This document shows, one piece after another, positions 1 to 35,579 of a stretch of DNA of 64,000 nt. A program made the translations under genes and the position numbers. The stretch's first letter is position 1; each line of letters begins with the position of its first letter. The stretch comes from an uncultured Methylophaga sp. Lineage in GTDB: Bacteria > Pseudomonadota > Gammaproteobacteria > GCF-002020875. The notes beneath the pieces are model-generated. The model was not told the DNA's origin. It ran no database searches and saw nothing but the letters and a program-made list of their open reading frames with translations. The stretch spans positions 21,290-85,289 of the forward strand of contig CALEHW010000023.1 of NCBI GenBank assembly GCA_937877715.1, written 5' to 3'.

Positions 1-617
1 GTAAAAAAGAGGTTCAGGTCACCATTAACGGCAAACAGATATGTGTCCCGTCGACACTCTCTGTGATTCAAGCCTTGTGGCATGCTGGATACCCTAGGGT
101 GCAGGGAGTTGGCTGTCTGGAGGGTGTCTGCGGCTCATGTCGCGTTCTGGTGCGCCGCTCCGACACCCAGGAGGTAAGCATGGAGATGGGGTGCCAGACC
201 CTGGTTGAGGAGGGAATGGAGGTGATGTTTCTGGTCTTCCCCTCCCCATCACAGCACACCTACACTCTGGAGCAGATTCCCAACTCTTGGGAGGTTCAGA
301 CCGAATTTCATAAGATTTTTCCAGAGGCACAACAGTGCCGCAACTGTCACGGCTGCAGTGTTGCCTGCCCCAAGGGGATCAGTGTGGAAAAAGGGGTAGA
401 GCTCGCAGTCAAAGGGCGCTTCAAGGAGGCTGGTGACCTCTTTGTCGAATGTATTATGTGTGATCTCTGCATGACCGGCTGCCCTGAGCAGATCGCACCC
501 AATCGGGTCGGACTCTTCTCCCGCCGGGTAACAGCCTATTTTCACGCCCGCCCCTCAAATCTGATCAACCGGCTTGAGAAAATCCGTACCGGCGAACTGC
601 AGATCATAAAAGAGTAG
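1..617 (+). CDS. Iron-sulfur subunit, SdhB/FrdB-like. N-terminal 2Fe-2S domain plus two Cys4 ferredoxin motifs. 5' end lies outside the window.
   Basis: Frame 3 is open from position 3 to the TAG at 615-617. It contains VQVTINGK...GCLEGVCGSCRVLV (a 2Fe-2S motif of the type found in SdhB and XDH small subunits), then CRNCHGCSVACPKG and CIMCDLCMTGCP. The CPKG motif is typical of succinate dehydrogenase/fumarate reductase Fe-S subunits. It sits directly upstream of the FrdA-like gene. Confidence 0.7.
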   Translation, partial: KKEVQVTINGKQICVPSTLSVIQALWHAGYPRVQGVGCLEGVCGSCRVLVRRSDTQEVSMEMGCQTLVEEGMEVMFLVFPSPSQHTYTLEQIPNSWEVQTEFHKIFPEAQQCRNCHGCSVACPKGISVEKGVELAVKGRFKEAGDLFVECIMCDLCMTGCPEQIAPNRVGLFSRRVTAYFHARPSNLINRLEKIRTGELQIIKE

Positions 618-620
618 CAC

Positions 621-2258
621 ATGATCGACAGAGCAAATATTGGAACCACATACCGTGAGGCACTAAAAAGATATCGTCCCAGAGATGAGCGCCCACTACC
701 GGAGCCCGGCATCGATGATGAAAAGCTGCTAAATAAATTTCATCCGGACCATATTGCGGAGAGCCTCACCACCCTGAAGGTTGGCATCAACCGTGGAGAT
801 CCGTGCCACAGACAGCTGGCCGATCTATTGCAATCCGATTCGCGAATCAACGAGGCCGACCTTGCCGGAGCAGCAACTGTAGAGACCGATGTGCTGGTAA
901 TTGGTGGTGGTGGCGCCGGATGTACCGCTGCGCTTATTGCCCAACAGCAGGGTGCCCGGGTTATCCTCGCAACCAAGCTGCGTCTTGGCGATAGCAACAC
1001 AGTAATGGCAGAGGGTGGAATTCAGGCCTCCATCAACAAGGATGACTCGCCCCAGTTTCACTACAATGACACCATCAAGGCTGGACATCATCAATCGGTA
1101 CCTGACCTGGTATCACAACTGGTACTGGATGGACCTGATGTGATCCGCTGGTTAATCCAGCAGGGAATGCAGTTTGATCTGGATGAATTTGGTGACCTGT
1201 TAACCAGACGCGCCGGAGGCACCTCAGCAGATCGCATCTGTTTCTACCGTGACTATACCGGCCTGGAGATGATGCGGGTGCTGCGTGAAGCAGTCCATAA
1301 CAGCAACATAGATGTCTGGGATTACTGCCCCACCGTGGAGCTGCTGGGTGACGACCTTGGTGGATGTTCCGGTGCCGTCATCTCCTCGCTCAAAAACAGG
1401 AAATATATACAGGTCAACGCGAAGGCAGTCATCATTGCAACCGGTGGAATCGGGCGCATGCATCTCAACGGGTTCCCTACCTCAAACCATTTCGGGGCGA
1501 CCGGGGATGGCTTGATACTCGCCTATCGCATGGGTGCGGCCCTGCGCGATCTCGACTCATTCCAGTACCACCCTACCGGTCTTGCCCACCCCTTCCACCT
1601 TGCAGGCAGTCTGATTACCGAGGGGGTTCGCTCCTGCGGAACCTATCTACTGAATAGCAAGGGTGAACGTTTTGTCGATGAGCTCTCGGCCCGGGACATT
1701 GTGGCTGCCTCGGTGATTCGTGAGTGCCGTGAGGGACGCGGAATCGTAACTGACGATAACAACTGCGGGGTCTGGCTCGACATCCCGGGGCTTGAGCTGC
1801 GTCAGCCAGGAATTCTCCAGCAACGCTTTCCAAAACTTATGCGCCTGGGGGAGAAGGCGGAGATTGACCTTACCAAAAAACCCCTCCTAATCTACCCCAC
1901 CCTCCATTACCAGAATGGTGGTGTTGTCATTAACGAGAATTGTGAAACCTCAATCCCCGGACTTTTCTGTACTGGAGAGGTGACCGGTGGAATTCACGGC
2001 AGAAACCGCATCATGGGCAACGCCCTGCTGGAGATTATCAGCTTTGGACGCAAGGCGGGAATGGCCGCAGCACAGCGAAGAAAGAAGAAACGGAGCAGTC
2101 AGCTCTCCATTGAACACCTAAACCAGCTGCGTAGGGAGCTGACCAACATGGGGCTCTCTATGGAGACAGAGGGGCCTCTACTATTCCCAGAGTATGCAAA
2201 GTTTGATCTCGACTCGGACTATGCCGGCCTGCGCCGTAACCGCGGGAGCACATCATGA
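621..2258 (+). CDS. Fumarate reductase/succinate dehydrogenase flavoprotein-like subunit. Soluble type with His to Asn at the covalent-FAD position.
   Basis: 545 aa. N-terminal FAD fold VLVIGGGGAGCTAAL. GDSNTVMAEGGI replaces SdhA RSHTVAAQGG. QYHPTG and LITEGVRSCGTYLLNSKGERF closely match the SdhA/FrdA active-site region (LVTEGCRGEGGYLLN..GERF). Confidence 0.8.
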   Translation: MIDRANIGTTYREALKRYRPRDERPLPEPGIDDEKLLNKFHPDHIAESLTTLKVGINRGDPCHRQLADLLQSDSRINEADLAGAATVETDVLVIGGGGAGCTAALIAQQQGARVILATKLRLGDSNTVMAEGGIQASINKDDSPQFHYNDTIKAGHHQSVPDLVSQLVLDGPDVIRWLIQQGMQFDLDEFGDLLTRRAGGTSADRICFYRDYTGLEMMRVLREAVHNSNIDVWDYCPTVELLGDDLGGCSGAVISSLKNRKYIQVNAKAVIIATGGIGRMHLNGFPTSNHFGATGDGLILAYRMGAALRDLDSFQYHPTGLAHPFHLAGSLITEGVRSCGTYLLNSKGERFVDELSARDIVAASVIRECREGRGIVTDDNNCGVWLDIPGLELRQPGILQQRFPKLMRLGEKAEIDLTKKPLLIYPTLHYQNGGVVINENCETSIPGLFCTGEVTGGIHGRNRIMGNALLEIISFGRKAGMAAAQRRKKKRSSQLSIEHLNQLRRELTNMGLSMETEGPLLFPEYAKFDLDSDYAGLRRNRGSTS

Positions 2259-3511
2259 GCACAGATGATCTTAACCAGGTCCTGCTTCACCCGGATCGCC
2301 GTTTTGGTGCAGATCTTGATACCTGGCTGGTTGATATCGGCGGTGACGGCTTGGAGAGTGCCATCCAGAATAGGGAAGAGATTCTGCCAACAATTCACAA
2401 GGCCAATCTGTTGGGGCTTGGGGGGAGCGGATTCCCCACCCATGTAAAGTGGGAATTCGTTGCTAATGAACCATCGGATCAGGACAAATATCTAATCTGT
2501 AATGGCAATGAGGATGAGCCGGGAACTTTCAAAGATCGGATACTTCTCCAGGAGACTCCTCATCAGGTAATTGAAGGTGCGATGATTACCGCCCTGGCCA
2601 CCGGCACCAACCAAATTGTCTTCTATATCAACCCCGAGCAGGAGGGCTCACTCGAGGCGATGAAAGAGGCTACCAACCAGTGGAGTGAGACCGATTACGT
2701 CAGCCAAATCTCCGAACTGCTGGGGCGCCCACTGGAATTTTATATTGTTGCTAGCTCTGGACACTACATTGGTGGGGAGGAGACTGCTGCCATCGAGTCC
2801 ATTGAGGGGAAATTCCCCTTCCCACGTGGCAAGCCACCCTACCCCGCCCAGACTGGATTGTTTGGACTGCCAACACTGATAAACAATGTAGAGACGATGG
2901 CCAATGTCTCTCACATCATCCGTAACGGCTCCGACTGGTTCATCAATCTGGGGCATGGGGAGTCTCACGGAACCAAGATTTTCTCTCTGAGTGGTGACGT
3001 ATTGCGCCCTGGGGCCTATGAGCTGCCAATGGGGACCCCGCTCTCCAACCTGATCTATGAGCACGGCGGAGGAATGCTGCTTGACCGAAAATTGAAGGCG
3101 GTATTCACCGGAGGACCATCCAACACAATTCTCACCCCGAAGGATCTTGATGTACCGCTGGACTTTGAGTCTGTGCAGCAGAGACGCTCCAGTCTCGGGA
3201 CTGGCGCAATGATCGTGATCTCCGAGGGGACCGGTATCGTACGTCGAGTCACGGAGTATGTATCCTTCTTTGCAAACTCCTCCTGTGGTCAGTGCCCATC
3301 ATGCAAGACTGGAACCTTCTATGCCTCACAGTTGCTCACTCGCATCGATAGCGGCAATGGGAATCGTGCCGATCTCGATACCCTGATTAACCTTACCCGC
3401 ATTCTTCCCGGAAGTGGTCGCTGCCACCTACTGGATGGAGCAATGAAACTACTAGACAGCTCACTCTACCACTTTATGGAAGAGTATGAGCAACCGCTAA
3501 AACACTCCTAA
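2255..3511 (+). CDS. NuoF-like (51-kDa subunit family) NADH-binding FMN/4Fe-4S protein.
   Basis: 418 aa. GLGGSGFPTHVKWEF matches the NuoF GRGGAGFPTGLKW motif. The C-terminal SCGQCPSCKTGT matches the NuoF 4Fe-4S motif. Overlaps the upstream gene by 4 nt. Confidence 0.75.
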   Translation: MSTDDLNQVLLHPDRRFGADLDTWLVDIGGDGLESAIQNREEILPTIHKANLLGLGGSGFPTHVKWEFVANEPSDQDKYLICNGNEDEPGTFKDRILLQETPHQVIEGAMITALATGTNQIVFYINPEQEGSLEAMKEATNQWSETDYVSQISELLGRPLEFYIVASSGHYIGGEETAAIESIEGKFPFPRGKPPYPAQTGLFGLPTLINNVETMANVSHIIRNGSDWFINLGHGESHGTKIFSLSGDVLRPGAYELPMGTPLSNLIYEHGGGMLLDRKLKAVFTGGPSNTILTPKDLDVPLDFESVQQRRSSLGTGAMIVISEGTGIVRRVTEYVSFFANSSCGQCPSCKTGTFYASQLLTRIDSGNGNRADLDTLINLTRILPGSGRCHLLDGAMKLLDSSLYHFMEEYEQPLKHS

Positions 3512-3767
3512 AAATCCGGGGAGAAAATACCCCTGACAATCTTCGGTGAAATCCCACTAAAAATCGGGTAACTTCTGGCTATTTTCGTCAAACTAACGCG
3601 ATCAAGCGCCATTATAACCCTCTCCGAACTTGATTTTTGGGTCCCTTTTGTGAGATCATGCGCGGCTATCACGGTTGATTGGTTAAGTATCACACAACGC
3701 CAACTCAACCAATTCATGGCAGAAATGGAAACAACTGCAACAAGCAGAATCTACGAGGGAATCGTTA

Positions 3768-5639
3768 GTGCAACCACAAACCAAACAGGAACATATTGTA
3801 GAAATCGTCAGTGATTCCGGAGAAGGGGCGCAGAAGTGCGGACAGACCTTCGGAACCATCAGTGCAAAGATGGGGAATGGTGTCTGGACAGTAGAGATCA
3901 TTCCCGCTGAGATCCAGCCACCGGCACGAACCCCTTCCGGGGCCAGCGGCATCCGTATCAGACTCGGCTCAAAAGAGATTACTAATGTAGGTAACGAGGG
4001 TGATCTGGTAGTCGCCTTCAATGAGCAGGTTCTCTACTCCAGAATTGCAAATGGTGCTTATAAAGAGGGAACTGTGGTTCTGCTTGATAACCGCTGGGAG
4101 AGTGATCGCTCTACCGAGATTCAGCAGATGTACAAGAAGGCTGTTGCGGAGTTTCGAGACCATGGATTGGTTGTCCATGAACTACCAATCCACGAGGCCT
4201 GCCTAAAAGTTGTCAAAGATCCCCGCAAGGGGAAAAACATGTTTGTCCTTGGTATGCTCTGCCGAATATACAACCGTGACAAAGAGATGGGGCGCAATGA
4301 GATTGCACTCACCTTTGCTGGCAAGGCAGAGAAGATCATCACCAGCAACCAGAAACTGTTTGATGCCGGATACCAATTTGCAGCCGAGCAGCTTGGTGAA
4401 TATTTCTTTGAAATCCCAACTCGTGAAGACCGTAGTGACAGCCCAATGGTGGTCACAAATGGAAATACAGCTGTCGGCCTTGGAGTGATGGCCTCGGGAA
4501 TGGAGCTAGTCTCCATGTACCCGATTACCCCAGCCACCTCAGCCTCGCACTACCTTGCCGATGTGTTTCCAGCCGCAGGTGGCTTTGTCCACCAGGCAGA
4601 GGATGAGATTGCAGCAATCGCCTTTGCCATTGGTGCCTCCTATGCAGGTAAAACTGCCTGCACCATCACCTCCGGACCAGGTATGGCCCTAAAGACCGAG
4701 AATATTGCCCTAGCGGTAATGGCAGAGGTTCCCCTTGTAATTGTCAATGTTCAACGAGGCGGCCCATCCACTGGACTCCCCACCAAGATTGAACAGGGTG
4801 ACCTGCTCTCCGCACTTTATGGCGAGCCGGGTGATGCACCTAAAATTATCCTTGCAGCAGCAACTATCGCAGAGTGTTGCAGTATGGTGGTGCTGGCCAG
4901 AAAGCTGGCAGAGTCATTCCGTACCCCGGTAATTGTATTAACCGATGCCAACCTGGCAACCGGAGTACAGCCATGGGAACGTCCAGAGTTGAGTCGTGAC
5001 ATGCTGGCTCCACCTCTCGACCAATCAGAGTGGAATAGTGATATTCCCGCTTATGACTGGGATGAAAAAACCGGACTCTCACAACGTCCCATCCCGGGCA
5101 TGCCGAATGGTGAATACGTACTTACCGGACTCTCTCACACCAAACAGAGCAAGGTCTCATACGAATCTGCAGAAAACCAGTACAGCGCCACTATGCGTAG
5201 CCGTAAACTGGCCACCCTGCAGAGCACCCTGACCCCACCTAATATCCATGGGGACGAGAGTGGAGATATGTTGGTGGTTGGTTGGGGATCTACCTTTGGT
5301 GCAATCGAGGAGGCAGTCGATAATCTGCGGACAACGGGCGAGAAAATCTCATCAATCCATCTGCGCTTCCTCTCACCTCTGGAGCCTGGATTGACCGAGA
5401 TCTTCTCCCAATTTAAAAAGGTTATAACAATTGAGGTGAACTACAGTGATGACATCAATGCACCGATGATCACCACTGAAAATCGCCGCTATGCACAACT
5501 GGCAATGGTGCTTCGTGTTCAGACCCTGGCAGATGTCGACTGCTGGTCGGCAGTCTACGGCCATCCCCTGCAACCAGAGATGATCGGTAATGTTCTGCAG
5601 GAACGTCTAAACCAACTCAACAAGAAAACAGGAGAATAG
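3768..5639 (+). CDS. korA: 2-oxoglutarate:ferredoxin oxidoreductase alpha subunit (two-subunit Kor type; gamma+alpha domains).
   Basis: 623 aa with a GTG start. N-terminal SDSGEGAQKCGQ (gamma-domain glycine motif). YPITPATSASHYLAD is the hallmark YPITPxS motif of 2-oxoacid:ferredoxin oxidoreductases. Confidence 0.85.
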   Translation: MQPQTKQEHIVEIVSDSGEGAQKCGQTFGTISAKMGNGVWTVEIIPAEIQPPARTPSGASGIRIRLGSKEITNVGNEGDLVVAFNEQVLYSRIANGAYKEGTVVLLDNRWESDRSTEIQQMYKKAVAEFRDHGLVVHELPIHEACLKVVKDPRKGKNMFVLGMLCRIYNRDKEMGRNEIALTFAGKAEKIITSNQKLFDAGYQFAAEQLGEYFFEIPTREDRSDSPMVVTNGNTAVGLGVMASGMELVSMYPITPATSASHYLADVFPAAGGFVHQAEDEIAAIAFAIGASYAGKTACTITSGPGMALKTENIALAVMAEVPLVIVNVQRGGPSTGLPTKIEQGDLLSALYGEPGDAPKIILAAATIAECCSMVVLARKLAESFRTPVIVLTDANLATGVQPWERPELSRDMLAPPLDQSEWNSDIPAYDWDEKTGLSQRPIPGMPNGEYVLTGLSHTKQSKVSYESAENQYSATMRSRKLATLQSTLTPPNIHGDESGDMLVVGWGSTFGAIEEAVDNLRTTGEKISSIHLRFLSPLEPGLTEIFSQFKKVITIEVNYSDDINAPMITTENRRYAQLAMVLRVQTLADVDCWSAVYGHPLQPEMIGNVLQERLNQLNKKTGE

Positions 5640-5641
5640 TC

Positions 5642-6604
5642 ATGTTTGGAATCAAGGCAGACTGGTCCCTAGATATTCAGGAACGTTATTTCACTCTCGA
5701 TGATTATGAGGGCAATGAGGCACGCTGGTGTTCTGGTTGTGGTGATCATGCCGTACTGGCAACAGCCCACCGTATCCTGCGTGACGCACAGCTTCCACCT
5801 GAAAAATCTGTTTTTGTCTCAGGTATCGGTTGCTCCAGCCGTATGCCCCACTATATGGCTACCTATGGGCTACATGGAATCCATGGACGAGCCCTGCCAC
5901 TAGCATGTGGCGTCAAGTCACGCCGCCCTGATCTGGATGTCTGGGTTGCCACCGGAGATGGTGACTGTTACTCTATCGGTGCCGGTCACTGGATCCATGC
6001 TGTGCGATACAATATGGATATGACCGTACTGATTTTTGACAACCAGATTTATGGGCTAACCAAAAAACAGACATCCCCAACCAGTCCAATTGAACTAAAG
6101 ACCAACACCCACCCTGAAGGTGCCTCCCTGGATGCCATGAATCCCAACACAGTAACCCTGGGCATTACCAATGCATCCTTTGTGGCACAGGTGGTTGACT
6201 GGAACCCTCCCCTGCTACACGAGACACTCAAGGCTGCCCATGCCCACAAGGGAGCCAGCTTTGTACGCATCATTCAGCGCTGCCCGGTCTTTGTCGACTC
6301 CATCACCAAGGAGCTACAGGAAGATGCCTCACGTCTGCGGCTACTGACTCATGAGAATGGTATCCCGGTTGCCAAGGGGGTCGAAAAACTGTTCCCGGAT
6401 AGCGTAGAGCATGATCCGTCAGATATGGCAGGGGCACTCAGAATTGCACGAGACGAGACCGAAAAAGGGATTATTCCGGTTGGACTTCTCTACCAGAACC
6501 AGAACATCCCCTGTTACAGCGACCTCTCTGGTCAGGGCGTTGAGACTACAGATGAAGAGAAGATTGCAGCAACCAATGCAGCATTGGATGTATTTGCAAT
6601 ATGA
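5642..6604 (+). CDS. korB: 2-oxoglutarate:ferredoxin oxidoreductase beta subunit (TPP-binding).
   Basis: 320 aa. WCSGCGDH is the characteristic Cys motif. TGDGDCYSIGAGHW...DNQIYGLTKKQ is the TPP GDG...N motif. Lies 3 nt after korA. Confidence 0.85.
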   Translation: MFGIKADWSLDIQERYFTLDDYEGNEARWCSGCGDHAVLATAHRILRDAQLPPEKSVFVSGIGCSSRMPHYMATYGLHGIHGRALPLACGVKSRRPDLDVWVATGDGDCYSIGAGHWIHAVRYNMDMTVLIFDNQIYGLTKKQTSPTSPIELKTNTHPEGASLDAMNPNTVTLGITNASFVAQVVDWNPPLLHETLKAAHAHKGASFVRIIQRCPVFVDSITKELQEDASRLRLLTHENGIPVAKGVEKLFPDSVEHDPSDMAGALRIARDETEKGIIPVGLLYQNQNIPCYSDLSGQGVETTDEEKIAATNAALDVFAI

Positions 6605-9069: not shown

Positions 9070-9076
9070 CAAACTG

Positions 9077-12900: not shown

Positions 12901-13784
12901 AACAGTGCCCTCCCATGCTGCTTATTGGGAATGACACTACACTGGGTGCAGGATCTGCCGGTGAGCTCAACTGGATTCTCAACAGCAGGCTCCCCATCAA
13001 GATTATCGTGCTGGCAGAGATGGATCTTGGCTTTAGCGAGGCTCATGCAGACTCCAGATCAGAGCTTGCCATGGCTGCCCTCTCCCAACGCGGTGCATAT
13101 GTGGCCCAGTGCTCCATCGCGGCACCAGAGCAGATGAACCGAGCAATGCGTGAGGCCCTAAACTACCCAGGCCCTGCACTATTGCGGCTCCACGCCCCAA
13201 GCCCACAACGCCACGGATTTGGCCCCGAGATGACTACTGTCCAGGCAGAACGAGCAGTAAATGGACGTGCCTTCCCACTATTCAGTTACAACCCGGAGGC
13301 AACAGGGGTGTTTGGTACCCGCATCAGCCTTGGGGGCAACCCGGAGAGTGAGATCTCCATCGCAGAGTGGGCCTTCCATGAGGGGCGCTTCTCCGGACAA
13401 TTCCAACCCTTATCTCCTGCACTGCAGAGCCAATCTGCAAATCTTGAGGAGTGGCTCAAACTGGATGAGAGGGGGCAAAACAACAAGACACCAATATTCA
13501 ACGAGTATGCAATCGAACCGGATTTTGCACGTCGACTGGGGCAACTTGTCGAACAGTGGCAGATGCTGCAGGAGCTGGCCGGTATCGTCACCCCATTTAC
13601 CGAAGATGTCAGAGAGCAGGCAGACAAGGCAATTGCTGAGAGTCACCAAAGAGAAATTGACGAGTTGAAAAAGGGACACCAGCAGGAGATAAACAACCTG
13701 CGCAACCAACTGGAATCCGAGATTACCCAGAGGATTACCGAACGCCTAGTTGCACTAACTGAAACCCAGAAAAAACCAAACTAA
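9924..13784 (+). CDS. Divergent pyruvate:ferredoxin oxidoreductase (PFOR/NifJ)-like protein. It keeps the two-cluster ferredoxin domain but apparently lacks the proximal-cluster cysteines. It has an insertion of about 170 aa and a coiled-coil C-terminal tail.
   Basis: 1286 aa. Domain-I-like region DGATAVATVEAI...MGLAMAGRRAFCSLWSSDL...LPLVIHTINRAL matches PFOR DGNTAxAHVAYA...HGALAAGALTTTFTASQGL...LPGVFHVSARA. Ferredoxin domain CSGCGSCWSNCP + CKGCGICTRLC (8 Cys). Domain-VI-like region IGNDTTLGAG...YVAQCSIAAPEQMNRAMREALNYPGPALLRLHAPSPQRHGFG...FPLFSYNP. The positions of the PFOR proximal-cluster ligands (GACxGCGE, ATGCSS, SPC) read AGGDSAEPGS, ASGTAATW and SPQ. Confidence 0.65.
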   Translation: MPSFAEIANRIYRKVLGVDGTVGEDKNSISVLLDGATAVATVEAILSEAAASGETFPPERGSSAWRSEQQRQQVNLFGKPLLQMESNTPRGSLSAAMGLAMAGRRAFCSLWSSDLAASQDLVRRAVGRHLPLVIHTINRALPLNGESLGGSDEGIHQLTNSGAFILFAENGQQAVDFTLIARAVAERALVPAIVVMDGDETAFASQQIDLPSPELIEKLIGNSSDPISIADPAQQLLFGDERRRVPGWYSLDHPTLQGSYRDRHSFGTGAVSHTTFFGKQVKGILHEIFGEFADLTGRNYSSLNYHGKKGARKIVITQGAITGRCRTIVDLLQKREKISIAVVGIGTTAPFPAAELGEILQNCQEITLFDRSEPLLNELPPLYSQVAPLIPANCRSASIIYGVGGTPVNDADLIAACMAPHNRSAGEVPVYRMGITTLADNSNPKQQVLRDLLERNYPQLAELGIREEDSAAEESPATPSVLRASAGGETPTHRTPMAVRHLGKQGGVGHAGYHNLSRFWDQTGLLYRDGMESRQGVDPFAAAAHIPPLTSTFSSVGDGSIPFFNPENCSGCGSCWSNCPDSAIGAVSILPSKLLESALQMGGADALRPHLSELSREISLTTESGEAGTIIRKSWDTIMEQSPLSEERRASAEDAITTLISNIGALPVAHTEPLFHQPERLKAQSGELLSVVINPDSCKGCGICTRLCQDESNRQEIENPALTMMEQDSKDRENSYHTWSIWEQLPDSASTTLVNYGTYPDIGQLNATMLSRYASMTMAGGDSAEPGSGEKIVVRQLLGITEYHQQPLVRQLLKEMDEKQSGLVAGIREKLATASHADDLSLLAEGLGNLSSRQLDLTTLAEKTAGIEGDSVDAHELKEWVELAESIRIEKEKIEKGEHSLGRARYSLAFASGTAATWAGTFPYNPFQVPVVIGEAGEIGALASGLMEGQLEQTTEVHRLLRKAKALLKGRLPAERKEIDKTTWGDLTADELQQCPPMLLIGNDTTLGAGSAGELNWILNSRLPIKIIVLAEMDLGFSEAHADSRSELAMAALSQRGAYVAQCSIAAPEQMNRAMREALNYPGPALLRLHAPSPQRHGFGPEMTTVQAERAVNGRAFPLFSYNPEATGVFGTRISLGGNPESEISIAEWAFHEGRFSGQFQPLSPALQSQSANLEEWLKLDERGQNNKTPIFNEYAIEPDFARRLGQLVEQWQMLQELAGIVTPFTEDVREQADKAIAESHQREIDELKKGHQQEINNLRNQLESEITQRITERLVALTETQKKPN

Positions 13785-13816
13785 ACAATATTGAACAGAT
13801 ACAAGGAATGTAATTC

Positions 13817-14995
13817 ATGAACCTCCACGAATACCAATCCAAACAGCTCTTTGAGCAGGTAGGCATCCCCATCCCCAAGGGCAAAACAGTTGAGAGACTG
13901 AATGATGTAGAGCAGGCAGCAGATGAGATTGGCGGCTCTGCATGGGTTGCCAAGGCACAGGTTCATGCCGGCGGCCGCGGCAAAGCCGGGGGGGTCAAAA
14001 TTGCCAGCAGCAAGGATGAGCTTGCTACATTCACCAATGAGATGCTTGGTGGAACCCTGACCACCCCACAGACTCATGGCCGGGCACTACCAATTCAGAA
14101 AGTCCTGATCGAGCAGACCCTGGATATCGGTCGCGAACTCTATCTGGGCGCACTGGTTGACCGCGATCGCGAACAGATTGTCTACATGGCATCCGCTGCA
14201 GGTGGCATGGATATCGAGCAGGTTGCCGCCGAGACACCGGAGAAGATTCTCACCGTACATGCCCACAGCGCTGCCGGTCTACAGCCTTACCAGTGCCGTC
14301 AACTGGCGTTTGGTCTCGGACTGAAGGGAAAGCAGATTGGTGCGCTTACTCGTATCCTCAGCGGACTCCATATCCTATTCATCCATAACGACCTGAGCCT
14401 GGTCGAGATCAACCCCCTGATCGTTACGGTGAGTGGGGAGTTACTGGCACTGGATGCAAAGATTAACCTTGATGACAACGCTCTATATCGCCATCCCAAA
14501 CTGCAGGAGCTGCATGACCCATCTCAGGAGGACGCAAGGGAGCTGGAGGCGGGCAAGCATGACCTCAATTACATTACCCTGGATGGCAATATTGGTTGCA
14601 TGGTAAACGGTGCAGGCCTGGCAATGGCCACCATGGATCTTATCAAGCTCCATGGTGGAGACCCGGCAAATTTCCTCGATGTTGGTGGAGGCACAACCGC
14701 AGAACGGGTAGCTGCCGCATTCAAACTAATCCTCAGTGACTCCAAGGTAGAGGCCATTCTGGTAAACATCTTTGGCGGCATTGTCCGTTGTGACCTTATC
14801 GCCGAGGGGATTATCACTGCAGTAAAAGAGGTGGGAGTAGAGATACCGGTAATTGTCCGCCTCGAGGGGACCAATGCCCCTCAGGGGATGGAGCTATTGA
14901 AAAAGAGCGGCCTTGATATTGATGTCGAAGAGACCCTGACCGGCGCCGCCAAAAAAGCAGTCGCCTCCACCACGTCAACAGGAGAAGGGGCATGA
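13817..14995 (+). CDS. sucC: Succinyl-CoA synthetase beta subunit (ATP-grasp).
   Basis: 392 aa. [12 protein letters not shown]...[17 protein letters not shown] is a near-canonical SucC N-terminus. Confidence 0.9.
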
Positions 14996-15879
14996 GTATC
15001 TTGATCAACGCAGAGACCCGCGTCATCGTACAGGGATTTACCGGAAAACAGGGTACCTTCCATGCCGAGCAATCCATCGCCTATGGCACCAATATTGTCG
15101 GTGGCGTCACCCCCGGCAAGGGTGGCCAGAGCCATCTTGATCGACCCGTATTCAATACCGTAGCTGATGCGGTGACAGAGACTGGTGCAGATGCCACCAT
15201 GATCTATGTCCCCGCAGCCTTTGCTGCCGATGCAATATTTGAGGCCGCCTCGGGTGGAATCAAAACCATTGTCTGCATTACCGAGGGGATCCCGGTTCAG
15301 GACATGATCAAGGTTAAAGCATTCCTGAGCGACTACCCCGATACCCACCTTATTGGACCCAACTGCCCCGGCATCATCACTCCAGGTAGCAACAAAAATG
15401 GCTGCAAGATTGGAATCATGCCAGGAAATATCCACCAGGAGGGCTCCGTAGGAATCGTCTCCCGCTCCGGAACACTCACCTATGAGGCAGTATTCCAGAC
15501 CACCAATGAGGGGCTGGGACAAAGCACCTGTATCGGAATTGGTGGAGATCCGATTCATGGCATGAACTTTATCGACTGCCTGGAGCTATTCCAGCAGGAT
15601 GAGCAGACCAAAGGAATTGTTCTGGTTGGCGAGATTGGCGGCAGCAAGGAGGAGGAGGCTGCCGAATATATCCGCAACAGTGTCACCAAGCCGGTAGTTG
15701 CCTATATTGCCGGAGTTACTGCACCTCCAGGACGAAGAATGGGCCACGCCGGTGCCATCATCTCCGGCGGCAAGGGTACAGCCGAGGACAAGATAGCCGC
15801 ACTCGAGGCTGTCGGGGTAACAGTCTCCCGCTCCCCGGCCGAGATTGGCAAGCACATGGCAGAGCTATTAAATAGCTAA
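14992..15879 (+). CDS. sucD: Succinyl-CoA synthetase alpha subunit.
   Basis: 295 aa. Rossmann CoA-binding N-terminus [12 protein letters not shown]. Phosphohistidine loop [15 protein letters not shown]. Overlaps the sucC stop as ATGA. Confidence 0.9.
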
Positions 15880-15888
15880 CCAGTTGAT

Positions 15889-17238
15889 ATGGGCCTTCTC
15901 TCAAGCTTCAAACGCAGCTTTTCTCACGGTGTACATCCTGCCCACTACAAGGGGCAGACCGAGAATCTCGCGATTCAACGTGTCCCTTTTGGCAATCGCT
16001 ATGTGATGCCACTAGGACAGCACATTGGGGCGCCAGCAATTGCTGTCGTCAACAAGGGGCAGCATGTCGGTCGAGGTGAGCTGATTGCCAAGCCAGGAGG
16101 GTTCATCTCAACAGCACTCCACAGTCCAGTCACAGGAACAGTCACTGAGATCTCCCCGCAACGAACCCTGGATGGATCCTTCAAGCCTACAATTGTGATT
16201 GAGGCAGATCCATTCTCCGCACAGAGAGTTGAGACCACCCCACCCGCCTCATGGGAGGAGTTATCTATTGAGGAGTTCATCGAAACAGTTCAGCAGGCGG
16301 GAATTGTTGGGATGGGAGGCGCCGCCTTCCCCAGCCACGTCAAATACTCGATTCCAGATGGTGCACATATTGATGATCTTCTGGTCAATGGTGCCGAGTG
16401 TGAGCCATTCCTAACCAATGACCACCGACTGATGGTTGAGCGTCCCGAGACGGTAATTCAGGGAACAGAGATCCTGCGGCAGAAACTGGGGGCAAAACGG
16501 GCCAATATCGGGATCGAGAGGAATAAACCAGAGGCGATAAGAGCACTGGAAAAAGTTCTGGAGAAGAGTCCATCCCTGCCTATTACGCTATCCCCGCTGG
16601 AGGTCAAATACCCTCAGGGCGCAGAGAAGATGCTGATCCAGTCTGTCTACCGCAAAGAGGTTCCGGCGGGCCAGCTCCCCAGAGATATTGGGGTTGCCGT
16701 CAATAATGTAGGAACCGTTGTAGCCATTGCAGACCTGTTTGCGACCGGTGCCCCACTCATAGAGCGCGTTGTTACCGTCTCCGGACCGGGAATCGATCAA
16801 CCTGCAAACCTGATGGTGCCACTTGGTACACCAGTTCGTGACCTACTCAGTTTCTGTGGCGGGCTCAACGATAAGACTCGCGAGATCATTATGGGCGGAC
16901 CGATGATGGGGTTTCCCATCACCAGCCTGGATGTACCAATACTGAAGGGCAGCTCCGGAATTCTTGCATTCACCGAAGAAGAGACAGCACGCCCACATGA
17001 ATACCCGTGCATCCGCTGTGGCCGCTGCCTGGAGGCATGCCCCTATTTCCTCAACCCATCTCGTCTGGCGCTGTTGAGCCGTAACCGACGCTACGAAGAG
17101 ACTATGGATTATCACGTAATGGATTGTGTAGAGTGCGGGGCCTGCAGTTTTGCCTGCCCCTCAAATATCCCAATAGCTCAGTTGATCAGAACAGCCAAAG
17201 ACAATCTCAGGCAAAACCCTGTAGAGGAGGCTGCATGA
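15889..17238 (+). CDS. rnfC: Rnf complex subunit C (NADH/FMN-binding, 2x[4Fe-4S]).
   Basis: 449 aa. GMGGAAFPSHVKY (NuoF-like FMN/NADH motif). CIRCGRCLEACP and CVECGACSFACP. Confidence 0.85.
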   Translation: MGLLSSFKRSFSHGVHPAHYKGQTENLAIQRVPFGNRYVMPLGQHIGAPAIAVVNKGQHVGRGELIAKPGGFISTALHSPVTGTVTEISPQRTLDGSFKPTIVIEADPFSAQRVETTPPASWEELSIEEFIETVQQAGIVGMGGAAFPSHVKYSIPDGAHIDDLLVNGAECEPFLTNDHRLMVERPETVIQGTEILRQKLGAKRANIGIERNKPEAIRALEKVLEKSPSLPITLSPLEVKYPQGAEKMLIQSVYRKEVPAGQLPRDIGVAVNNVGTVVAIADLFATGAPLIERVVTVSGPGIDQPANLMVPLGTPVRDLLSFCGGLNDKTREIIMGGPMMGFPITSLDVPILKGSSGILAFTEEETARPHEYPCIRCGRCLEACPYFLNPSRLALLSRNRRYEETMDYHVMDCVECGACSFACPSNIPIAQLIRTAKDNLRQNPVEEAA

Positions 17239-18251
17239 GCAAGAGAGATCCAGACCTTCTCCTACAGTCTGCGCCACTGCTTAAACAGGGGCTGAGTGTG
17301 CCTACCGCAATGCGTGATGTCCTGCTGGCCCTGATGCCGGCACTATTTGCGGGATTCTGGTTCTTTGGCCTCAGCGCCATTCTTGTGGTTGCAGCAACCA
17401 TTCTTGGTGCTATGGCAACCGAGTGGCTCTTCACCCCAAAACAGGAGCGGGCAGTTGCACTTGGTGACGGCAGCGCACTGCTGACCGGTCTACTGCTGGG
17501 AATGACTCTCCCCCCCGCCCTCCCTCTCTGGATGGCGTGGCTTGGCGGTGTGGTTGCAATTGGTCTTGGTAAAACCATCTGGGGAGGGCTCGGCAACAAC
17601 CTCTTCAACCCTGCCATTGTGGGACGTGCCTTCCTGCTGGGAACCTTTCCAATCGCCATGACCACCTGGCATGTGGCCGCAGGACCCGATTCATTCTTCC
17701 AGCTCCACCCCAGCACCCTTGCCCTCCCCTTCATGCAATCCCCCCCAATGGACGGGATGAGTGCAGCCACCCCACTGGGTCTGATGAAATTCGAGCAGAT
17801 CGACTCCCCGATCTTCTCCCTGATGTTTGGGAACAGCTCCGGCTCCCTGGGAGAGACCAGCGGGGTACTGCTGATGGTTGGTGGACTCTACCTGCTCTTG
17901 CGTCGCGCCCTGGAGTGGAGAATTCCCTTGGCAATTTTTATCTCTGCCGGACTCTTCACCCTACTGCTAGAGACCATAGACCCTGCACGCTTCCCCGGTA
18001 TACACTTCACCATCTTCTCTGGCGGAATGATGCTGGGGGCCATCTATATGGCAACCGACCCGGTCACCTCCCCGGTCACCCCCAAAGGGGCCTGGATATT
18101 CGGTTGTGGTATCGGGGTTCTGGTGGTACTGATTCGTAACTTCGGCGGGCTCCCGGAGGGAATACTCTATGCGATCCTACTCATGAATGCCGCCACACCG
18201 CTGATTAACCGCTACACTCAGCCCCGGGTCTTTGGCAGGAGCAGGTCATGA
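17235..18251 (+). CDS. rnfD: Rnf complex subunit D (membrane subunit with covalent FMN).
   Basis: Polytopic membrane protein. SAATPLG contains the FMN-attachment Thr. ATG at 17235 overlaps the rnfC stop as ATGA, so I prefer it to the longer ORF-track start at 17124. Confidence 0.8.
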   Translation: MSKRDPDLLLQSAPLLKQGLSVPTAMRDVLLALMPALFAGFWFFGLSAILVVAATILGAMATEWLFTPKQERAVALGDGSALLTGLLLGMTLPPALPLWMAWLGGVVAIGLGKTIWGGLGNNLFNPAIVGRAFLLGTFPIAMTTWHVAAGPDSFFQLHPSTLALPFMQSPPMDGMSAATPLGLMKFEQIDSPIFSLMFGNSSGSLGETSGVLLMVGGLYLLLRRALEWRIPLAIFISAGLFTLLLETIDPARFPGIHFTIFSGGMMLGAIYMATDPVTSPVTPKGAWIFGCGIGVLVVLIRNFGGLPEGILYAILLMNAATPLINRYTQPRVFGRSRS

Positions 18252-18943
18252 CAGAGCCGGCTGACCAGAGACCAAATAGCACGAATGAGGCTCCACCACC
18301 AGTGGTGATGGAGCCGAGCTCAATCAGACTTATCTCCACCCTGGCAATTGCCGGGCTTGTCTCCGGTATTGCAATTGTCGCCATCTATGAGGCCACCCTG
18401 CAGACCATCACCGAAAACAAGGCTCGAGAGCTGCGCGAGGCCGTATTTAAGGTGCTGCCAGGGGTTAGCAAGATGAAAAAATTTCAGCTTGAGGAAAATG
18501 GCATCCGCTTCCGTGCCGAAGAGGGCAAGGATGAAAATACCATATATGGGGGATACAACCAGCAGGGAGAATTTGTCGGTTATGCCCTCCCCAGTGCCGG
18601 TCCCGGCTTTCAGGACACTATCGGAATACTCTACGGGTACATCCCGGAGTCCCGCAAGGTTGTGGGAATGGAGATCCTGGAGAGCCGTGAAACCCCGGGG
18701 CTGGGAGACAAGATATACAAGGACCTCTCCTTCGTCTCCAATTTTGATAACCTCTCCATCGACCCTGAGATTGTCACCATCAAGAAGGGGATGAAAAGTG
18801 CCGCCAATGAGGTAGATGCCATTACCGGGGCAACCATCTCCTCCAAGGCAGTTGTTCGCATCATCAACGAGGGTAACGAACGCTGGATAAACCAGCTTCC
18901 CACTTATGGGATCCCCCTACCTGAAGAAGGGAGTCCAGAATAA
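18248..18943 (+). CDS. rnfG: Rnf complex subunit G (periplasmic FMN-binding).
   Basis: 231 aa. N-terminal TM helix. ITGATISSKAV is the flavinylation motif. Confidence 0.8.
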   Translation: MTEPADQRPNSTNEAPPPVVMEPSSIRLISTLAIAGLVSGIAIVAIYEATLQTITENKARELREAVFKVLPGVSKMKKFQLEENGIRFRAEEGKDENTIYGGYNQQGEFVGYALPSAGPGFQDTIGILYGYIPESRKVVGMEILESRETPGLGDKIYKDLSFVSNFDNLSIDPEIVTIKKGMKSAANEVDAITGATISSKAVVRIINEGNERWINQLPTYGIPLPEEGSPE

Positions 18944-19596
18944 TGGCAAAAACACCAGAGAGCGTATACCAGGAGATGCTCAAGGGAATCTGGAGAGACA
19001 ACCCGGTCTTTGTCCAGGTACTAGGGATGTGTCCAATGCTGGCGGTCACCAACTCCGCAGTCAATGCACTGGCGATGGGGCTGGCCACATTCTTTGTACT
19101 GGTTGGCTCCAGCCTGCTGGTCTCGATGATGCGCAAGTGGATCCCCAAACAGGTCCGAATCTCCAGCTACATCATTATTATCGCCACCTTTGTAACCATC
19201 ATTGACTACACCCTACTGGCGCTGTTTCCCAAGATCCACAAGGAGCTGGGAGCATTCATTCCACTGATTACCGCAAACTGCCTGATCCTTGGGCGACAGG
19301 AGGCCTTTGCCTCACGCAACAGTGTCCGTTTTGCAGTGATGGATGCGGTGGGCATGGCGGGGGGATTCCTCTTTGCCCTGCTGGCACTTGGTGGGGTACG
19401 CGAGATTCTCGGTGAGGGGGCGCTGTTTGGAGTATCCCTGTTTGGCCCCAATTTTGAGCCCTGGATAATCATGATCCTGCCACCTGGCGGATTCCTTACC
19501 CTGGGGTTAATTCTGCTCTTCTTTAACTGGGTTACAGAGAAGCACAAAGAGGCACAGATGCGTCTGCTACAGCCAGCTGAGGAGAGATCATCATGA
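18943..19596 (+). CDS. rnfE: Rnf complex subunit E (NqrD/RnfE family).
   Basis: 217 aa polytopic membrane protein. VLGMCPMLAVT and LITANCLILG resemble the NqrDE/RnfAE conserved Cys helices. Confidence 0.8.
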   Translation: MAKTPESVYQEMLKGIWRDNPVFVQVLGMCPMLAVTNSAVNALAMGLATFFVLVGSSLLVSMMRKWIPKQVRISSYIIIIATFVTIIDYTLLALFPKIHKELGAFIPLITANCLILGRQEAFASRNSVRFAVMDAVGMAGGFLFALLALGGVREILGEGALFGVSLFGPNFEPWIIMILPPGGFLTLGLILLFFNWVTEKHKEAQMRLLQPAEERSS

Positions 19597-20186
19597 TGAC
19601 AGATGCCGCCTTCCAGCACTTTCTCTGGATATTTATCAGTGCCCTGCTAGTCAACAACTTCGTGCTGGCCTACTTCCTTGGACTCTGCCCCTTCCTGGGC
19701 GTATCCGGAAAGCTTGAGACCTCATTCAGGCTTGGTCTTGCCACCACCTTTGTACTGATCATCACCGCCATCTGTGCCTGGATACTCAACACCTACGTAC
19801 TTCCCCACGCCCCCTACCTGCGGCTGATCAGCTTTATTGTGGTGATCGCCAGCGTGGTGCAGTTTATCGAGATGTTGATCAAGAAGCTGAGCCCGGCCCT
19901 GTTCCGATCACTTGGAATCTTCCTGCCACTGATCACCACAAACTGCGCCATCCTCGGACTCGCCATCTTTGCCACCAATCGTGAATATAGTTTTGCCGAG
20001 AGCATTATATTCGCCCTCGGTGCTGGCGGCGGATTTACCCTGGCGCTGCTGCTAATGGCAGGATTGCGTGAGGAGAGCGAACTCTCCGATGTCCCCACCC
20101 TGATCCGAGGCACCGCTTTCAACCTGATCATTGCGGGAATTCTCTCCATGGCCTTTATGGGCTTTGCCGGACTCTTCTCGTCATGA
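19593..20186 (+). CDS. rnfA: Rnf complex subunit A (NqrE/RnfA family).
   Basis: 197 aa. FLGLCPFLGVS and LITTNCAILG are RnfA-type motifs. Confidence 0.8.
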   Translation: MMTDAAFQHFLWIFISALLVNNFVLAYFLGLCPFLGVSGKLETSFRLGLATTFVLIITAICAWILNTYVLPHAPYLRLISFIVVIASVVQFIEMLIKKLSPALFRSLGIFLPLITTNCAILGLAIFATNREYSFAESIIFALGAGGGFTLALLLMAGLREESELSDVPTLIRGTAFNLIIAGILSMAFMGFAGLFSS

Positions 20187-20365
20187 TGGGATATATCCTC
20201 TCCATTCTTGCACTGATCGCCCTGCTGGTTGGATGGGTACTGTTTCAGCAGTGGCTGAAGAAAAAAGATCCAGAGCAGTTCGGATACAAACCCGGCTGTG
20301 GTGCCTGTGCCAGCAAGGGGAGCTGCTCAACCTCAGGCAATAAGCATCAAAAAAAACACAACTAA
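20183..20365 (+). CDS. Small single-TM protein with a C-terminal GCGACxxKGSC cysteine cluster. Resembles NqrM (DUF539), the Na+-NQR maturation factor.
   Basis: 60 aa. Overlaps the rnfA stop as ATGA. Hydrophobic N-terminal helix followed by KPGCGACASKGSCSTSG. Confidence 0.5.
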   Translation: MMGYILSILALIALLVGWVLFQQWLKKKDPEQFGYKPGCGACASKGSCSTSGNKHQKKHN

Positions 20366-20380
20366 ACAGATAGAGACAGC

Positions 20381-21319
20381 ATGAGTTTACAGACAAGAAA
20401 AATTGCACTCGTTGGTGGTGGCCAGATCGGTACTGCACTGGCCCTAATGATCACCCAGAAAGACCATGCGGAGGTAGTAATTGTCGACCTCCCAGATGCG
20501 GTCGACCCCATCAAGGGCAAGGCTCTCGACATCATGGCACTACGCCCACACGCCGGGGTGGATGTAGAGATCACCGCTACCAGCGACTACAGCGAGATTG
20601 CCGATTCCGAGGTAGTAATTGTTACAGCCGGGATTCCACGCAGGGCCGGCATGACCAGAAATGACCTGCTGGAGATAAATCTTGGGGTTATCAAATCTGT
20701 TGCCAAAGAGGTTGCTACTCACGCCCCCAATGCCTTCGTTGTACTCTCTACCAACCCTGTCGACACCATGTGCCAGGCCTTCCAACACTACTCAGGATTT
20801 CCAAAGAACCGAGTAATTGGACTCTCCGGGGCACTCGATAGCGGTCGATTCCGACTCTTCATTGCGATGGAAACTGGCTTCTCAGCCAAAGATGTTTCAT
20901 GCATGGTGATGGGAGGTCACGGCCCTGCAATGATTCCTCTGACCCGCACCGCAACCGTTGGTGGCATTCCAATCCAGACTCTACTTTCTGATGAAAAGAT
21001 CGAGGAGATCGTCGAGCGTACCCGTCAAGCTGGAACCGAGATCGTGCAACTACTTGGACAAGGCAGTGCCTACATCAGCCCCGCATCAGCAATCATGGAG
21101 ATGGTCGAGGCCTACCTCTACAACAAGAAGCGGCTGATCGCCTCCTCAGTCCTCTGTGAGGGAGAGTATGGAATCGATAACTGCTTTATCGGCGTCCCCT
21201 GCGTTATCGGTGCCGGTGGAGTCGAGCGGATTGTAGAGATGGAGCTGACCGCAGAGGAGCAGGCCCAGCTCAACGAGAACTATCGCTCACTCAGAGAGAA
21301 TATAGAACGGATAGGTTGA
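20381..21319 (+). CDS. mdh: Malate dehydrogenase (LDH-like family).
   Basis: 312 aa. KIALVGGGQIGTALAL NAD fold. GIPRRAGMTRNDLL has the Arg typical of MDH substrate specificity. Confidence 0.9.
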   Translation: MSLQTRKIALVGGGQIGTALALMITQKDHAEVVIVDLPDAVDPIKGKALDIMALRPHAGVDVEITATSDYSEIADSEVVIVTAGIPRRAGMTRNDLLEINLGVIKSVAKEVATHAPNAFVVLSTNPVDTMCQAFQHYSGFPKNRVIGLSGALDSGRFRLFIAMETGFSAKDVSCMVMGGHGPAMIPLTRTATVGGIPIQTLLSDEKIEEIVERTRQAGTEIVQLLGQGSAYISPASAIMEMVEAYLYNKKRLIASSVLCEGEYGIDNCFIGVPCVIGAGGVERIVEMELTAEEQAQLNENYRSLRENIERIG

Positions 21320-35521: not shown

Positions 35522-35579
35522 TATTCAATACTCCTTGAGAACGGACGGGGAGAATTCTCTCCCCATCCTCCTCTTGCTA

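Follow-up and report, generated by a model that had tools for sequence, protein, structure and literature searches.

The window analysed here is a stretch of 64,000 nucleotides from contig CALEHW010000023.1 of an uncultured Methylophaga sp. (GenBank assembly GCA_937877715.1). Its positions 1-21319 hold an array of 17 consecutive plus-strand genes, recognised by open reading frame (ORF) calls and Pfam/NCBIfam scans, in which the genes of an Rnf complex are interleaved with korAB, sucCD, mdh and genes resembling those of a fumarate reductase. Two large genes, p822 and p1286, flank rnfB and encode proteins of 822 and 1286 amino acids (aa). Judged from their sequences, the 'pyruvate:ferredoxin oxidoreductase' (PFOR) genes embedded in this type of operon, termed rnf2, appear to be a conserved pair of catalytically degenerate 2-oxoacid:ferredoxin oxidoreductase (OFOR) paralogues that descend from an intact giant OFOR embedded with Rnf. 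The catalytic degeneracy of the pair appears to be new, as a literature search of incomplete coverage returned no report of a catalytically degenerate Rnf-linked 'PFOR'.

Loss of catalytic motifs in p1286

The best match of p1286 in both sequence and fold is PFOR. A search of the PDB with the family profile gave 6cin_A with an E-value of 1e-79, and the AlphaFold2 model, predicted for residues 1-1200, gave a PDB match at E 3e-39 and contains the OFOR domains I, II, V and VI. We aligned p1286 and 87 family members with three motif-intact giant OFORs and two canonical PFORs. The Glu of the PYR domain that activates thiamine pyrophosphate (TPP) is present in 5/5 references, whereas all 88 members of the p1286 family carry P, A, G or T at this position. 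The four Cys positions of the proximal [4Fe-4S] cluster are occupied by E (87/88), S (87/88), one of S, T, P or A, and S (88/88). At the Mg-TPP site GDG...N the Asn is replaced by L, F or a gap, the Asp being retained in 49 of 88 members, and p1286 itself reads GND...AEMDLGF. The two [4Fe-4S] clusters of domain V are preserved: their ligands C569/572/575/579 and C698/701/704/708 were found in 86-88 of the 88 members and are the only Cys in the family above 86% conservation, positions 417, 774 and 995 being Cys in 60-85%. The domain that binds coenzyme A (CoA), domain III, is deleted in the forms of 1,258-1,291 aa, including that of the window, and kept in those of about 1,490-1,500 aa. Both length classes occur among close relatives (the window against L007-L009 and L018), which points to a recent deletion. 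Based on these motifs, p1286 is probably a pseudo-enzyme with a PFOR fold.

Comparison with the homodimeric PFORs of Desulfovibrio africanus (1B0P) and Moorella thermoacetica (6CIN) leads in the same direction. They share with p1286 the fold, the domain order I-II-(III)-V-VI and the clusters of domain V, but p1286 lacks the TPP-activating Glu, GDG...N and the proximal cluster, and its clade has lost domain III. Moreover, p1286 has about 100 aa inserted in domain V and a long coiled-coil extension at the C-terminus, and in the window a second, truncated paralogue, p822, carries a ferredoxin tail. In the literature, the product of the 1286-aa gene, alone or together with that of the 822-aa 'por-like' gene, is read as a working PFOR or pyruvate synthase whose ferredoxin is recycled by Rnf. 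This reading agrees with the best sequence and fold matches, with the annotation as por or PFOR (PMC4287430, PMC6315080) and with the intact motifs of the protein that fills the same slot in sister loci. However, the Glu, GDG...N and the four proximal-cluster Cys are replaced throughout the family while the intact references keep them in the same alignment, the CoA-binding domain is deleted in the window clade, and no compensating Cys rises above 86% conservation. Because of these motif losses we regard a working PFOR as very unlikely. The original prediction for this array, made from the letters of the window, had likewise proposed a PFOR-like catalyst consuming ferredoxin; this is contradicted by the absence of the TPP and proximal-cluster motifs in 88/88 p1286-family and 120/120 p822-family members.

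The p822 family and its tethered ferredoxin

The sole Pfam match of p822 is a C-terminal Fer4_13 domain. Nevertheless, its residues 177-821 align to the final 645 residues of P0092, an intact giant OFOR (E 9e-70), the C-terminal half of p1286 aligns with it as well (E 4e-14), and it has the PP-domain fold of an OFOR. All 120 of 120 family members lack CxxCGE, GDG and both the third and the fourth Cys, while the ferredoxin Cys are invariant (100%) in the same set. In the predicted structure the ferredoxin domain hangs on a disordered segment of about 60 residues with a confidence score (pLDDT) below 50. The core of the array contains no free-standing ferredoxin gene, the tail of p822 being the only ferredoxin-like module there.

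The p822 family is large, with 1,168 clusters at 50% identity (E<=1e-30), and outside the ferredoxin domain about 90 of its residues are invariant. Compared with the Solemya pervernicosa symbiont, p822 and p1286 are 47% and 40% identical, respectively, and the neighbouring proteins 62-83%; the two genes thus evolve faster than those around them. Since dozens of their residues are invariant, both proteins are under selection. Decaying pseudogenes were considered and rejected, as the ORFs are full-length, many residues are invariant across phyla, and the genes are transcribed in symbionts.

Conservation of gene order

To cover the breadth of the arrangement, we scanned metagenomes with the p1286 family profile and obtained 80 loci; the following counts are limited to loci with enough flanking DNA. 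A contig scan with a single protein as query had given six close relatives only. In all, the arrangement recurs in more than 90 of the loci retrieved. Directly upstream of the big gene lies rnfB in 42 of 54 loci, and directly downstream rnfC in 48 of 60. Further out, p822 (25/34) and korAB (19/22) were found upstream and rnfA (28/35) downstream, but sucC follows the big gene directly in 3 of 60 loci only. Thiopontia-like metagenome-assembled genomes (MAGs) named 'uncultured Piscirickettsiaceae' have the array in its entirety, together with the hemN and methyltransferase genes that follow it (p1286 identity 57-68%), and the full order recurs in the gill symbiont of Solemya pervernicosa (40%). 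In Endoriftia (L015) the genes run gltA, mdh, frd-like trio, korAB, p831, rnfB, p1520 and sucCD. A Myxococcota MAG has korAB-p1316-rnfB-p1433-rnfCDGEA followed by the small protein gene, and lacks sucCD, mdh and frd genes. From the locus counts we draw a division between an invariant core across phyla, consisting of korAB-p822-rnfB-p1286-rnfCDGEA and a gene for a small Cys-rich membrane protein, and the lineage-specific additions sucCD, mdh and the frd-like trio.

These results bear on several claims of the original prediction. The gene order rnfB, 1286-aa gene, sucCD and rnfCDGEA with korAB, mdh and fumarate-reductase-like genes was described correctly, as ORF calls and family scans confirmed, and the proposal that Rnf, KorAB and the large proteins form one functional neighbourhood is upheld by the frequencies of rnfB, rnfC and korAB given above. 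In contrast, sucCD cannot be a defining part of the module, given its place after the big gene in so few of the metagenome loci. The rnf genes had also been taken for a scrambled rnfABCDGE operon, but their order is the recognised rnfBCDGEA (rnf2) type (PMC4287430). The search for synteny found this order to be widespread and already annotated, which largely refutes the idea of an unrecognised arrangement, and it had indeed been published (PMC4287430; PMC6315080 Suppl. Notes 2 and 4, Table S1; PMC11636981).

One could still argue that genome history has made these genes neighbours by chance, with overlaps reflecting ordinary compaction and rnf and TCA genes sharing no functional coupling. The variability of sucCD, mdh and the frd-like trio would fit such a view, as would the other inserts seen, namely an aldo-keto-reductase-like gene (L008/L009), an intervening sequence protein gene (Endoriftia) and a LysR gene (Solemya symbiont). 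However, the order of the core persists across the distance from Gammaproteobacteria to Myxococcota (protein identity 29-52%) and in most of the 80 independent loci, and the overlap of 17 nucleotides (nt) between rnfB and p1286 is conserved. We therefore consider this explanation extremely improbable, and for the core it is excluded.

Some loci deviate in detail. A 351-aa ORF, aldo-keto-reductase-like by eye, lies between rnfC and rnfD in L008 (18074-19129, plus strand) and L009, so redox genes can evidently enter the rnf2 operon at more than one junction. In Endoriftia p831 and rnfB are separated by the gene for a '23S rRNA intervening sequence protein' (L015 12550-12972, plus strand). In L052 a second rnf set (rnfA, rnfE, rnfG) follows on the opposite strand directly after the first rnfA, and the two rnf operons appear to converge. 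The orphan p836 of Thiocystis violacea adjoins TonB receptors (L016 10001-12511).

Origin from giant fused OFORs

In some sister loci the slot between rnfB and rnfC is filled by one OFOR of about 1,700 aa. This gene stands downstream of korAB in L077, L081, L086, L088 and L096, and in L084 and L093, whose contigs end before korAB, rnfB and rnfC likewise enclose it. In all seven giant OFORs the CxxCGE, GDG, YSNTGGQ and PCP motifs are intact, and a ferredoxin is tethered at the C-terminus. Where the loci extend far enough upstream, a p822 gene precedes 25 of 29 big genes of the degenerate type and none of 6 of the active type. Conversely, the ferredoxin tail is present in 12 of 13 active big proteins and in 0 of 63 degenerate ones. 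The Myxococcota homologue of p822 (1,316 aa) retains an OFOR-like N-terminal half. These giant OFORs and the proteins P0090 (Longimicrobiales) and P0092 (about 1,650-1,750 aa; C-terminal Fer4_13) have in common with p1286 and p822 an insertion in domain V, an extended C-terminus and the ferredoxin on its tether, but they are single genes with intact catalytic motifs and no p822 partner, and are themselves uncharacterised.

Because an intact giant OFOR fills the same slot between rnfB and rnfC in sister loci, p822 and p1286 are best read as degenerate paralogues that go back to a giant fused OFOR. In the simplest reading, an Rnf-embedded giant OFOR was duplicated and catalysis was lost in both copies; the ferredoxin tail would then have been retained on one copy (p822) and domain V on the other (p1286).

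Rnf subunits and KorAB

The array encodes the full set of Rnf subunits B, C, D, G, E and A (Table 1) in the order B..CDGEA, the operon type named rnf2 (rnfBCDGEA) in PMC4287430. The best PDB match of RnfB is 9eri_B, subunit B of a Na+-translocating Rnf, to which residues 2-223 align with 178 bits; residues 5-266 align to 7zc6_B with 161 bits, and the match to 8ahx_B (174 aa, 'ion-translocating oxidoreductase complex subunit B') reaches 52 bits only. RnfB combines a membrane anchor at its N-terminus with a Cys-rich FeS domain and with repeats of the polyferredoxin type.

KorA scores 500 bits against the OAFO_sf model, above its cut-off, and contains the region of the catalytic Glu (QAEDEIAA). 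The best PDB match of KorB is 6n2n_B from the 2-oxoglutarate:ferredoxin oxidoreductase (OGOR) of Magnetococcus (E 6e-49), and its motifs WCSGCGD, GIGCSS, GDGDCYSIG, FDNQIYG and QRCPVF are all present. By its motifs KorAB is the sole TPP enzyme of the array. Its specificity for 2-oxoglutarate is suggested by similarity, that is, by the Magnetococcus match and OAFO_sf membership. Like the OGOR of Magnetococcus marinus (6N2N) and the Hydrogenobacter enzyme 'For', KorAB has two subunits, one [4Fe-4S] cluster and no ferredoxin domain of its own. Unlike in these systems, korAB is encoded directly upstream of p822-rnfB.

Table 1. Features of the array in window coordinates (nt)
Feature	Position	Strand	Description
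FrdB-like Fe-S protein	1-617	+	2Fe-2S N-terminus and 4Fe-4S dicluster; first ~4 codons lie beyond the left edge of the window
FrdA/SdhA/TfrA-family flavoprotein	621-2258	+	FAD_binding_2 (E 6e-78); TfrA 353 bits
NuoF-like NADH/FMN/4Fe-4S subunit	2255-3511	+	Complex1_51K, SLBB, NADH_4Fe-4S
NuoF-korA gap	3512-3767		sole long intergenic gap of the array; probable internal promoter region for korA..mdh
korA	3768-5639	+	alpha subunit, domains III-I-II; POR, POR_N, PFOR_II
korB	5642-6604	+	TPP/[4Fe-4S] beta subunit, catalytically intact by motifs
p822	6601-9069	+	822 aa; putative degenerate OFOR beta/domain-VI paralogue with C-terminal single-cluster ferredoxin
rnfB	9077-9940	+	FeS and Fer4 domains; long, membrane-anchored polyferredoxin type
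p1286	9924-13784	+	domains I, II, 2x[4Fe-4S] domain V, degenerate domain VI, coiled-coil tail
sucC	13817-14995	+	ATP-grasp_2/Ligase_CoA (Pfam)
sucD	14992-15879	+	CoA_binding/Ligase_CoA (Pfam)
rnfC	15889-17238	+	RnfC_N, Complex1_51K, Fer4
rnfD	17235-18251	+	NQR2_RnfD_RnfE; 17235 is the real start
rnfG	18248-18943	+	FMN_bind
rnfE	18943-19596	+	Rnf-Nqr
rnfA	19593-20186	+	Rnf-Nqr
60-aa membrane protein	20183-20365	+	one transmembrane helix, Cys-rich tail GCGAC..SC; ATGA overlap with rnfA
mdh	20381-21319	+	malate dehydrogenase, last gene of the array; Ldh_1_N and Ldh_1_C

Junctions and transcription signals

The genes are tightly packed, with junctions of at most 32 nt in 15 of 16 cases and overlaps in nine. 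Seven overlaps are of the ATGA type (FAD/NuoF, korB/p822, sucC/D, rnfC/D, rnfD/G, rnfE/A and rnfA/small protein), rnfG and rnfE share 1 nt in TAATG, and rnfB and p1286 overlap by 17 nt, an overlap that is kept in relatives together with the p1286 start MPSF.... The non-overlapping junctions are 2-32 nt apart except for the 256 nt between the NuoF-like gene and korA. Of the eight ATGA or 4-nt overlaps claimed in the original prediction six are real; those of rnfB/p1286 and rnfG/E have other lengths, and the FAD/NuoF overlap was not listed. The fixed stoichiometry derived from them is unsupported, since the korB/p822 and sucC/D overlaps are not conserved in the relative L001 and stop/start codon overlaps also occur elsewhere in the window. 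The overlaps indicate operon compaction and are no evidence for fixed stoichiometry.

The gap at 3512-3767 contains a promoter-like element (cTTGATTt...tGAGAt) that is kept among close relatives, and therefore the frd-like trio and korA..mdh may be separate transcription units. In the Solemya pervernicosa symbiont this gap is filled by a divergent LysR-family gene (L004 2677-3600, minus strand), a candidate regulator of the kor-rnf unit. Scans for consensus promoters and terminators inside the array gave no more matches than in shuffled sequence.

The remainder of the window (21-64 kb) carries housekeeping genes, and its GC content is even. Therefore, the array belongs to the core chromosome, and an origin as a mobile island was rejected. 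Between mdh and a convergent hemN-like gene lies a pair encoding a HigB-like toxin and a helix-turn-helix (HTH) antitoxin (21389-21960, minus strand), an insert absent from the close relative L001. A tRNA gene at 43034-43107 (plus strand), the sole Rfam match in the window, is far from the array. Genes for SCO1/SenC and PCu(A)C copper chaperones stand side by side at 34844-36056 (minus strand) in the stretch with the lowest GC content of the window (0.47), adjoining ORFs without family match.

Lineage-specific genes and the small membrane protein

The three genes at the left end probably encode a fumarate reductase. The FrdB-like gene, open in frame 3 from nt 3 and ending 3 nt upstream of the FrdA-like gene, has a Pfam Fer4 dicluster and partial NCBIfam matches to SdhB/FrdB and NuoI; its orthologue in L001 has 208 aa and carries Fer2_4. 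The flavoprotein, with SdhA/FrdA as best PDB matches, keeps the equivalents of H232, R287, H355, R390 and T244/E245 of Escherichia coli FrdA. The position of the FAD-linking His44 is Asn, so FAD is probably bound non-covalently. A non-covalently bound FAD is associated with the reduction of fumarate and not with the oxidation of succinate, and the flavoprotein is the probable fumarate-reducing subunit; because L-aspartate oxidase shares the His/Arg/His/Arg set, the substrate assignment relies on the FrdB-like partner and the TCA context. The NuoF-like protein scores 389 bits against nuoF_fam, under the equivalog cut-off. A soluble NADH:fumarate reductase is a reasonable reading of the trio. 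The putative NADH-fumarate reductase named in the original prediction is consistent with this, as the domains and FrdA residues make the trio look soluble and NADH-linked. The fumarase gene is not in the cluster. The fumarate reductase of Hydrogenobacter has five subunits, a set that differs from that of the trio.

The sucCD genes encode succinyl-CoA synthetase and lie between p1286 and rnfC in the window clade and the Solemya pervernicosa symbiont, and after the big gene in Endoriftia. The mdh gene stands at the end of the array in the window clade and the Solemya symbiont, and upstream of the frd-like trio in Endoriftia.

The small protein encoded after rnfA has 53-63 aa and occupies this place in most loci reaching that far (L001 20108-20299, L004 20954-21115 and L014 18500-18667 among them), in gammaproteobacterial loci as well as in one Myxococcota locus; in Myxococcota its tail reads CGGCECGGGSC. 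It shows a weak match to FeoB_associated (PF12669, E 8e-4), below the cut-off, and may be an unrecognised accessory or maturation factor of Rnf. It had been called NqrM-like, with which it has one transmembrane helix and a Cys-rich tail in common, but this is a resemblance only: no match to the NqrM (DUF539) model PF04400 appeared even at E<=10, and this identity was rejected.

Discussion

The cluster is known from chemosynthetic symbionts. Dmytrenko et al. (2014) found the symbiont of Solemya velum to carry two rnf operons, rnfABCDGE (rnf1) and rnfBCDGEA (rnf2), with 'pyruvate:ferredoxin oxidoreductase' genes between rnfB2 and rnfC2 (PMC4287430). The operon type and the large PFOR-like gene between rnfB and rnfC are the same as in the window, but the insert was taken as a working PFOR with pyruvate as the electron donor, whereas the family found here lacks the catalytic motifs; the Solemya homologue read as degenerate is P0022 of the S. 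pervernicosa symbiont. Rubin-Blum et al. (2019) reported for Escarpia symbionts a reductive tricarboxylic acid (rTCA) cycle cluster 2 with gltA, ferredoxin, frdx and nuoF (both with an asterisk in the source), korA, korB, por-like, rnfB, por, sucC and sucD (PMC6315080), all of which are transcribed (Table S1). Genes and order from the frd-like trio through sucD in this cluster of Escarpia and Riftia agree with the window (L015). However, on the Endoriftia contig mdh lies upstream and no rnfCDGEA follows sucD, while in the window rnfCDGEA, the small protein gene and mdh follow directly. Mitchell et al. (2024) found that 'PFOR-like' and korAB(3) of Endoriftia are jointly down-regulated under sulfide limitation, and listed RNF and OGOR/PFOR isoforms as of unknown function or direction (PMC11636981). 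The motifs of por and por-like are not analysed in the text and supplements of the rTCA cluster 2 papers (PMC6315080, PMC11636981).

The proposal that the ferredoxin of OGOR and PFOR is recycled by Rnf had been made earlier for the symbionts of tubeworms (PMC6315080 Suppl. Notes 2 and 4). Therefore, and because the arrangement is known and widespread, the original prediction of a ferredoxin hub has no claim to novelty, although the conserved neighbourhood of Rnf and KorAB speaks for its substance. A further comparison is offered by rTCA cluster 1 of tubeworms (Hdr-Flx/KorABCD/TfrAB), in which an electron-delivery machine is also interleaved with an OGOR and a fumarate reductase. Direct electron channelling has been proposed for this cluster (PMC6315080 Suppl. 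Note 3). Cluster 1 uses flavin-based bifurcation in place of the ion-gradient-driven Rnf of the window, and the types of OGOR and fumarate reductase differ as well.

The reading we favour, at about even confidence, is that the array represents an rnf2 operon from a sulfur oxidiser among the Gammaproteobacteria, related to Candidatus Thiopontia. This operon would be fused in one compact unit with enzymes of the reductive TCA branch (malate dehydrogenase, a soluble NADH:fumarate reductase of NuoF-FrdB-FrdA type and succinyl-CoA synthetase), and p822 and p1286 would serve as an Fe-S adaptor between RnfB and KorAB. An adaptor is suggested because the core has no free-standing ferredoxin gene. As a 'wire' docked to KorAB as well as to the polyferredoxin RnfB, the two proteins would let low-potential electrons pass between Rnf and OGOR without a free ferredoxin pool. 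In the most likely direction, Rnf would be run backwards by the ion gradient, so that electrons would flow from NADH through Fe-S clusters into the conversion of succinyl-CoA and CO2 to 2-oxoglutarate. NADH would also drive the reduction of oxaloacetate to malate by malate dehydrogenase and of fumarate to succinate by the fumarate reductase. A more specific form of this idea, which we put forward as speculative and rather doubtful, is that a catalytically dead, OFOR-derived p822/p1286 heterodimer bolts KorAB onto RnfB with three Fe-S clusters of its own and the p822 ferredoxin as a swinging arm, giving a hard-wired Rnf-OGOR supercomplex that would fix CO2 into 2-oxoglutarate by means of the membrane ion gradient.

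Several points weigh against the adaptor. The role is deduced from what p822 and p1286 have lost and kept in their sequences. Moreover, the association with Rnf and KorAB is not universal: Endoriftia (L015) keeps rnfB-p1520 but has no rnfCDGEA directly after sucCD, p822 homologues are solitary in Thiocystis violacea (L016), and in Candidatus Kentron the pair p858 and p1582 has neither rnf nor kor neighbours (L013 706-8100). Besides, the residues that replace the active site are themselves highly conserved (E 87/88, S 87/88 and S 88/88, with the substitute motifs GGD.AEPGSGEK and HAPSP.RHGF in p1286), and conserved substitutes could mean a new catalytic or ligand-binding function and not a passive wire. 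A function other than wiring, be it non-TPP catalysis, metabolite sensing, or the assembly or oxygen protection of KorAB or RnfB, is therefore a serious alternative, though we think it improbable on balance. The many invariant residues of p822 outside its ferredoxin, its solitary occurrence in some genomes and the faster evolution of both proteins in comparison with the Solemya symbiont would be in line with it. On the other hand, ferredoxin-type clusters are the only cofactor-binding motifs that survive in every member, the tethered ferredoxin was moved from the big protein to p822 and not lost, and both genes have stayed next to rnfB, one on either side.

The direction of electron flow, which cannot be read from sequence, is a further point against the proposed adaptor mechanism. 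Rnf and OGOR are reversible. In an oxidative module KorAB would replace 2-oxoglutarate dehydrogenase, Rnf would oxidise the Fe-S carrier, pump ions and make NADH, and SucCD would make ATP; we hold this to be possible but less likely than the reductive route. The co-located fumarate reductase-like enzyme, with its predicted non-covalent FAD and its NuoF-type NADH module, argues against an oxidative module, as on thermodynamic grounds such an NADH-type fumarate reductase cannot oxidise succinate with NAD+. The tubeworm authors nevertheless argue that KorAB may also run oxidatively, because the symbionts have no ogdh gene and gltA is adjacent to the cluster (PMC6315080 Suppl. Note 2; L015). The expression data from Endoriftia can be read both ways: korAB(3) and 'PFOR-like' diverge from the expression of the rTCA cluster, as an oxidative role would allow, but their expression drops when sulfide, and thus energy, is limiting, which fits an energy-consuming reaction (PMC11636981).

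The cluster is central to published models of carbon metabolism in the chemosynthetic symbionts of Riftia, Escarpia and Solemya, and its two large genes have been counted as PFOR or pyruvate synthase in at least two papers (PMC4287430, PMC6315080). If p822 and p1286 cannot bind TPP, these models overcount pyruvate synthases. The annotated PFOR of Candidatus Kentron (P0060) is also of the degenerate type, which may matter for published models of its carbon assimilation. The p822 family, with more than 1,100 clusters at 50% identity, has no assigned function. If the supercomplex proves true, it would be the first case both of an Rnf complex with a dedicated, built-in partner enzyme and of an OFOR pseudo-enzyme, and it would help to explain how microaerobic sulfur oxidisers feed oxygen-sensitive carboxylases of very low potential. 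The supply of electrons at roughly -500 mV to OGOR in organisms respiring O2 or nitrate is an unsolved problem of the reverse TCA cycle. With a conserved Rnf operon that has its own Fe-S adaptor proteins and its own OGOR this question would become directly testable, and the degenerate pair provides a concrete, testable hypothesis for how these bacteria feed OGOR.

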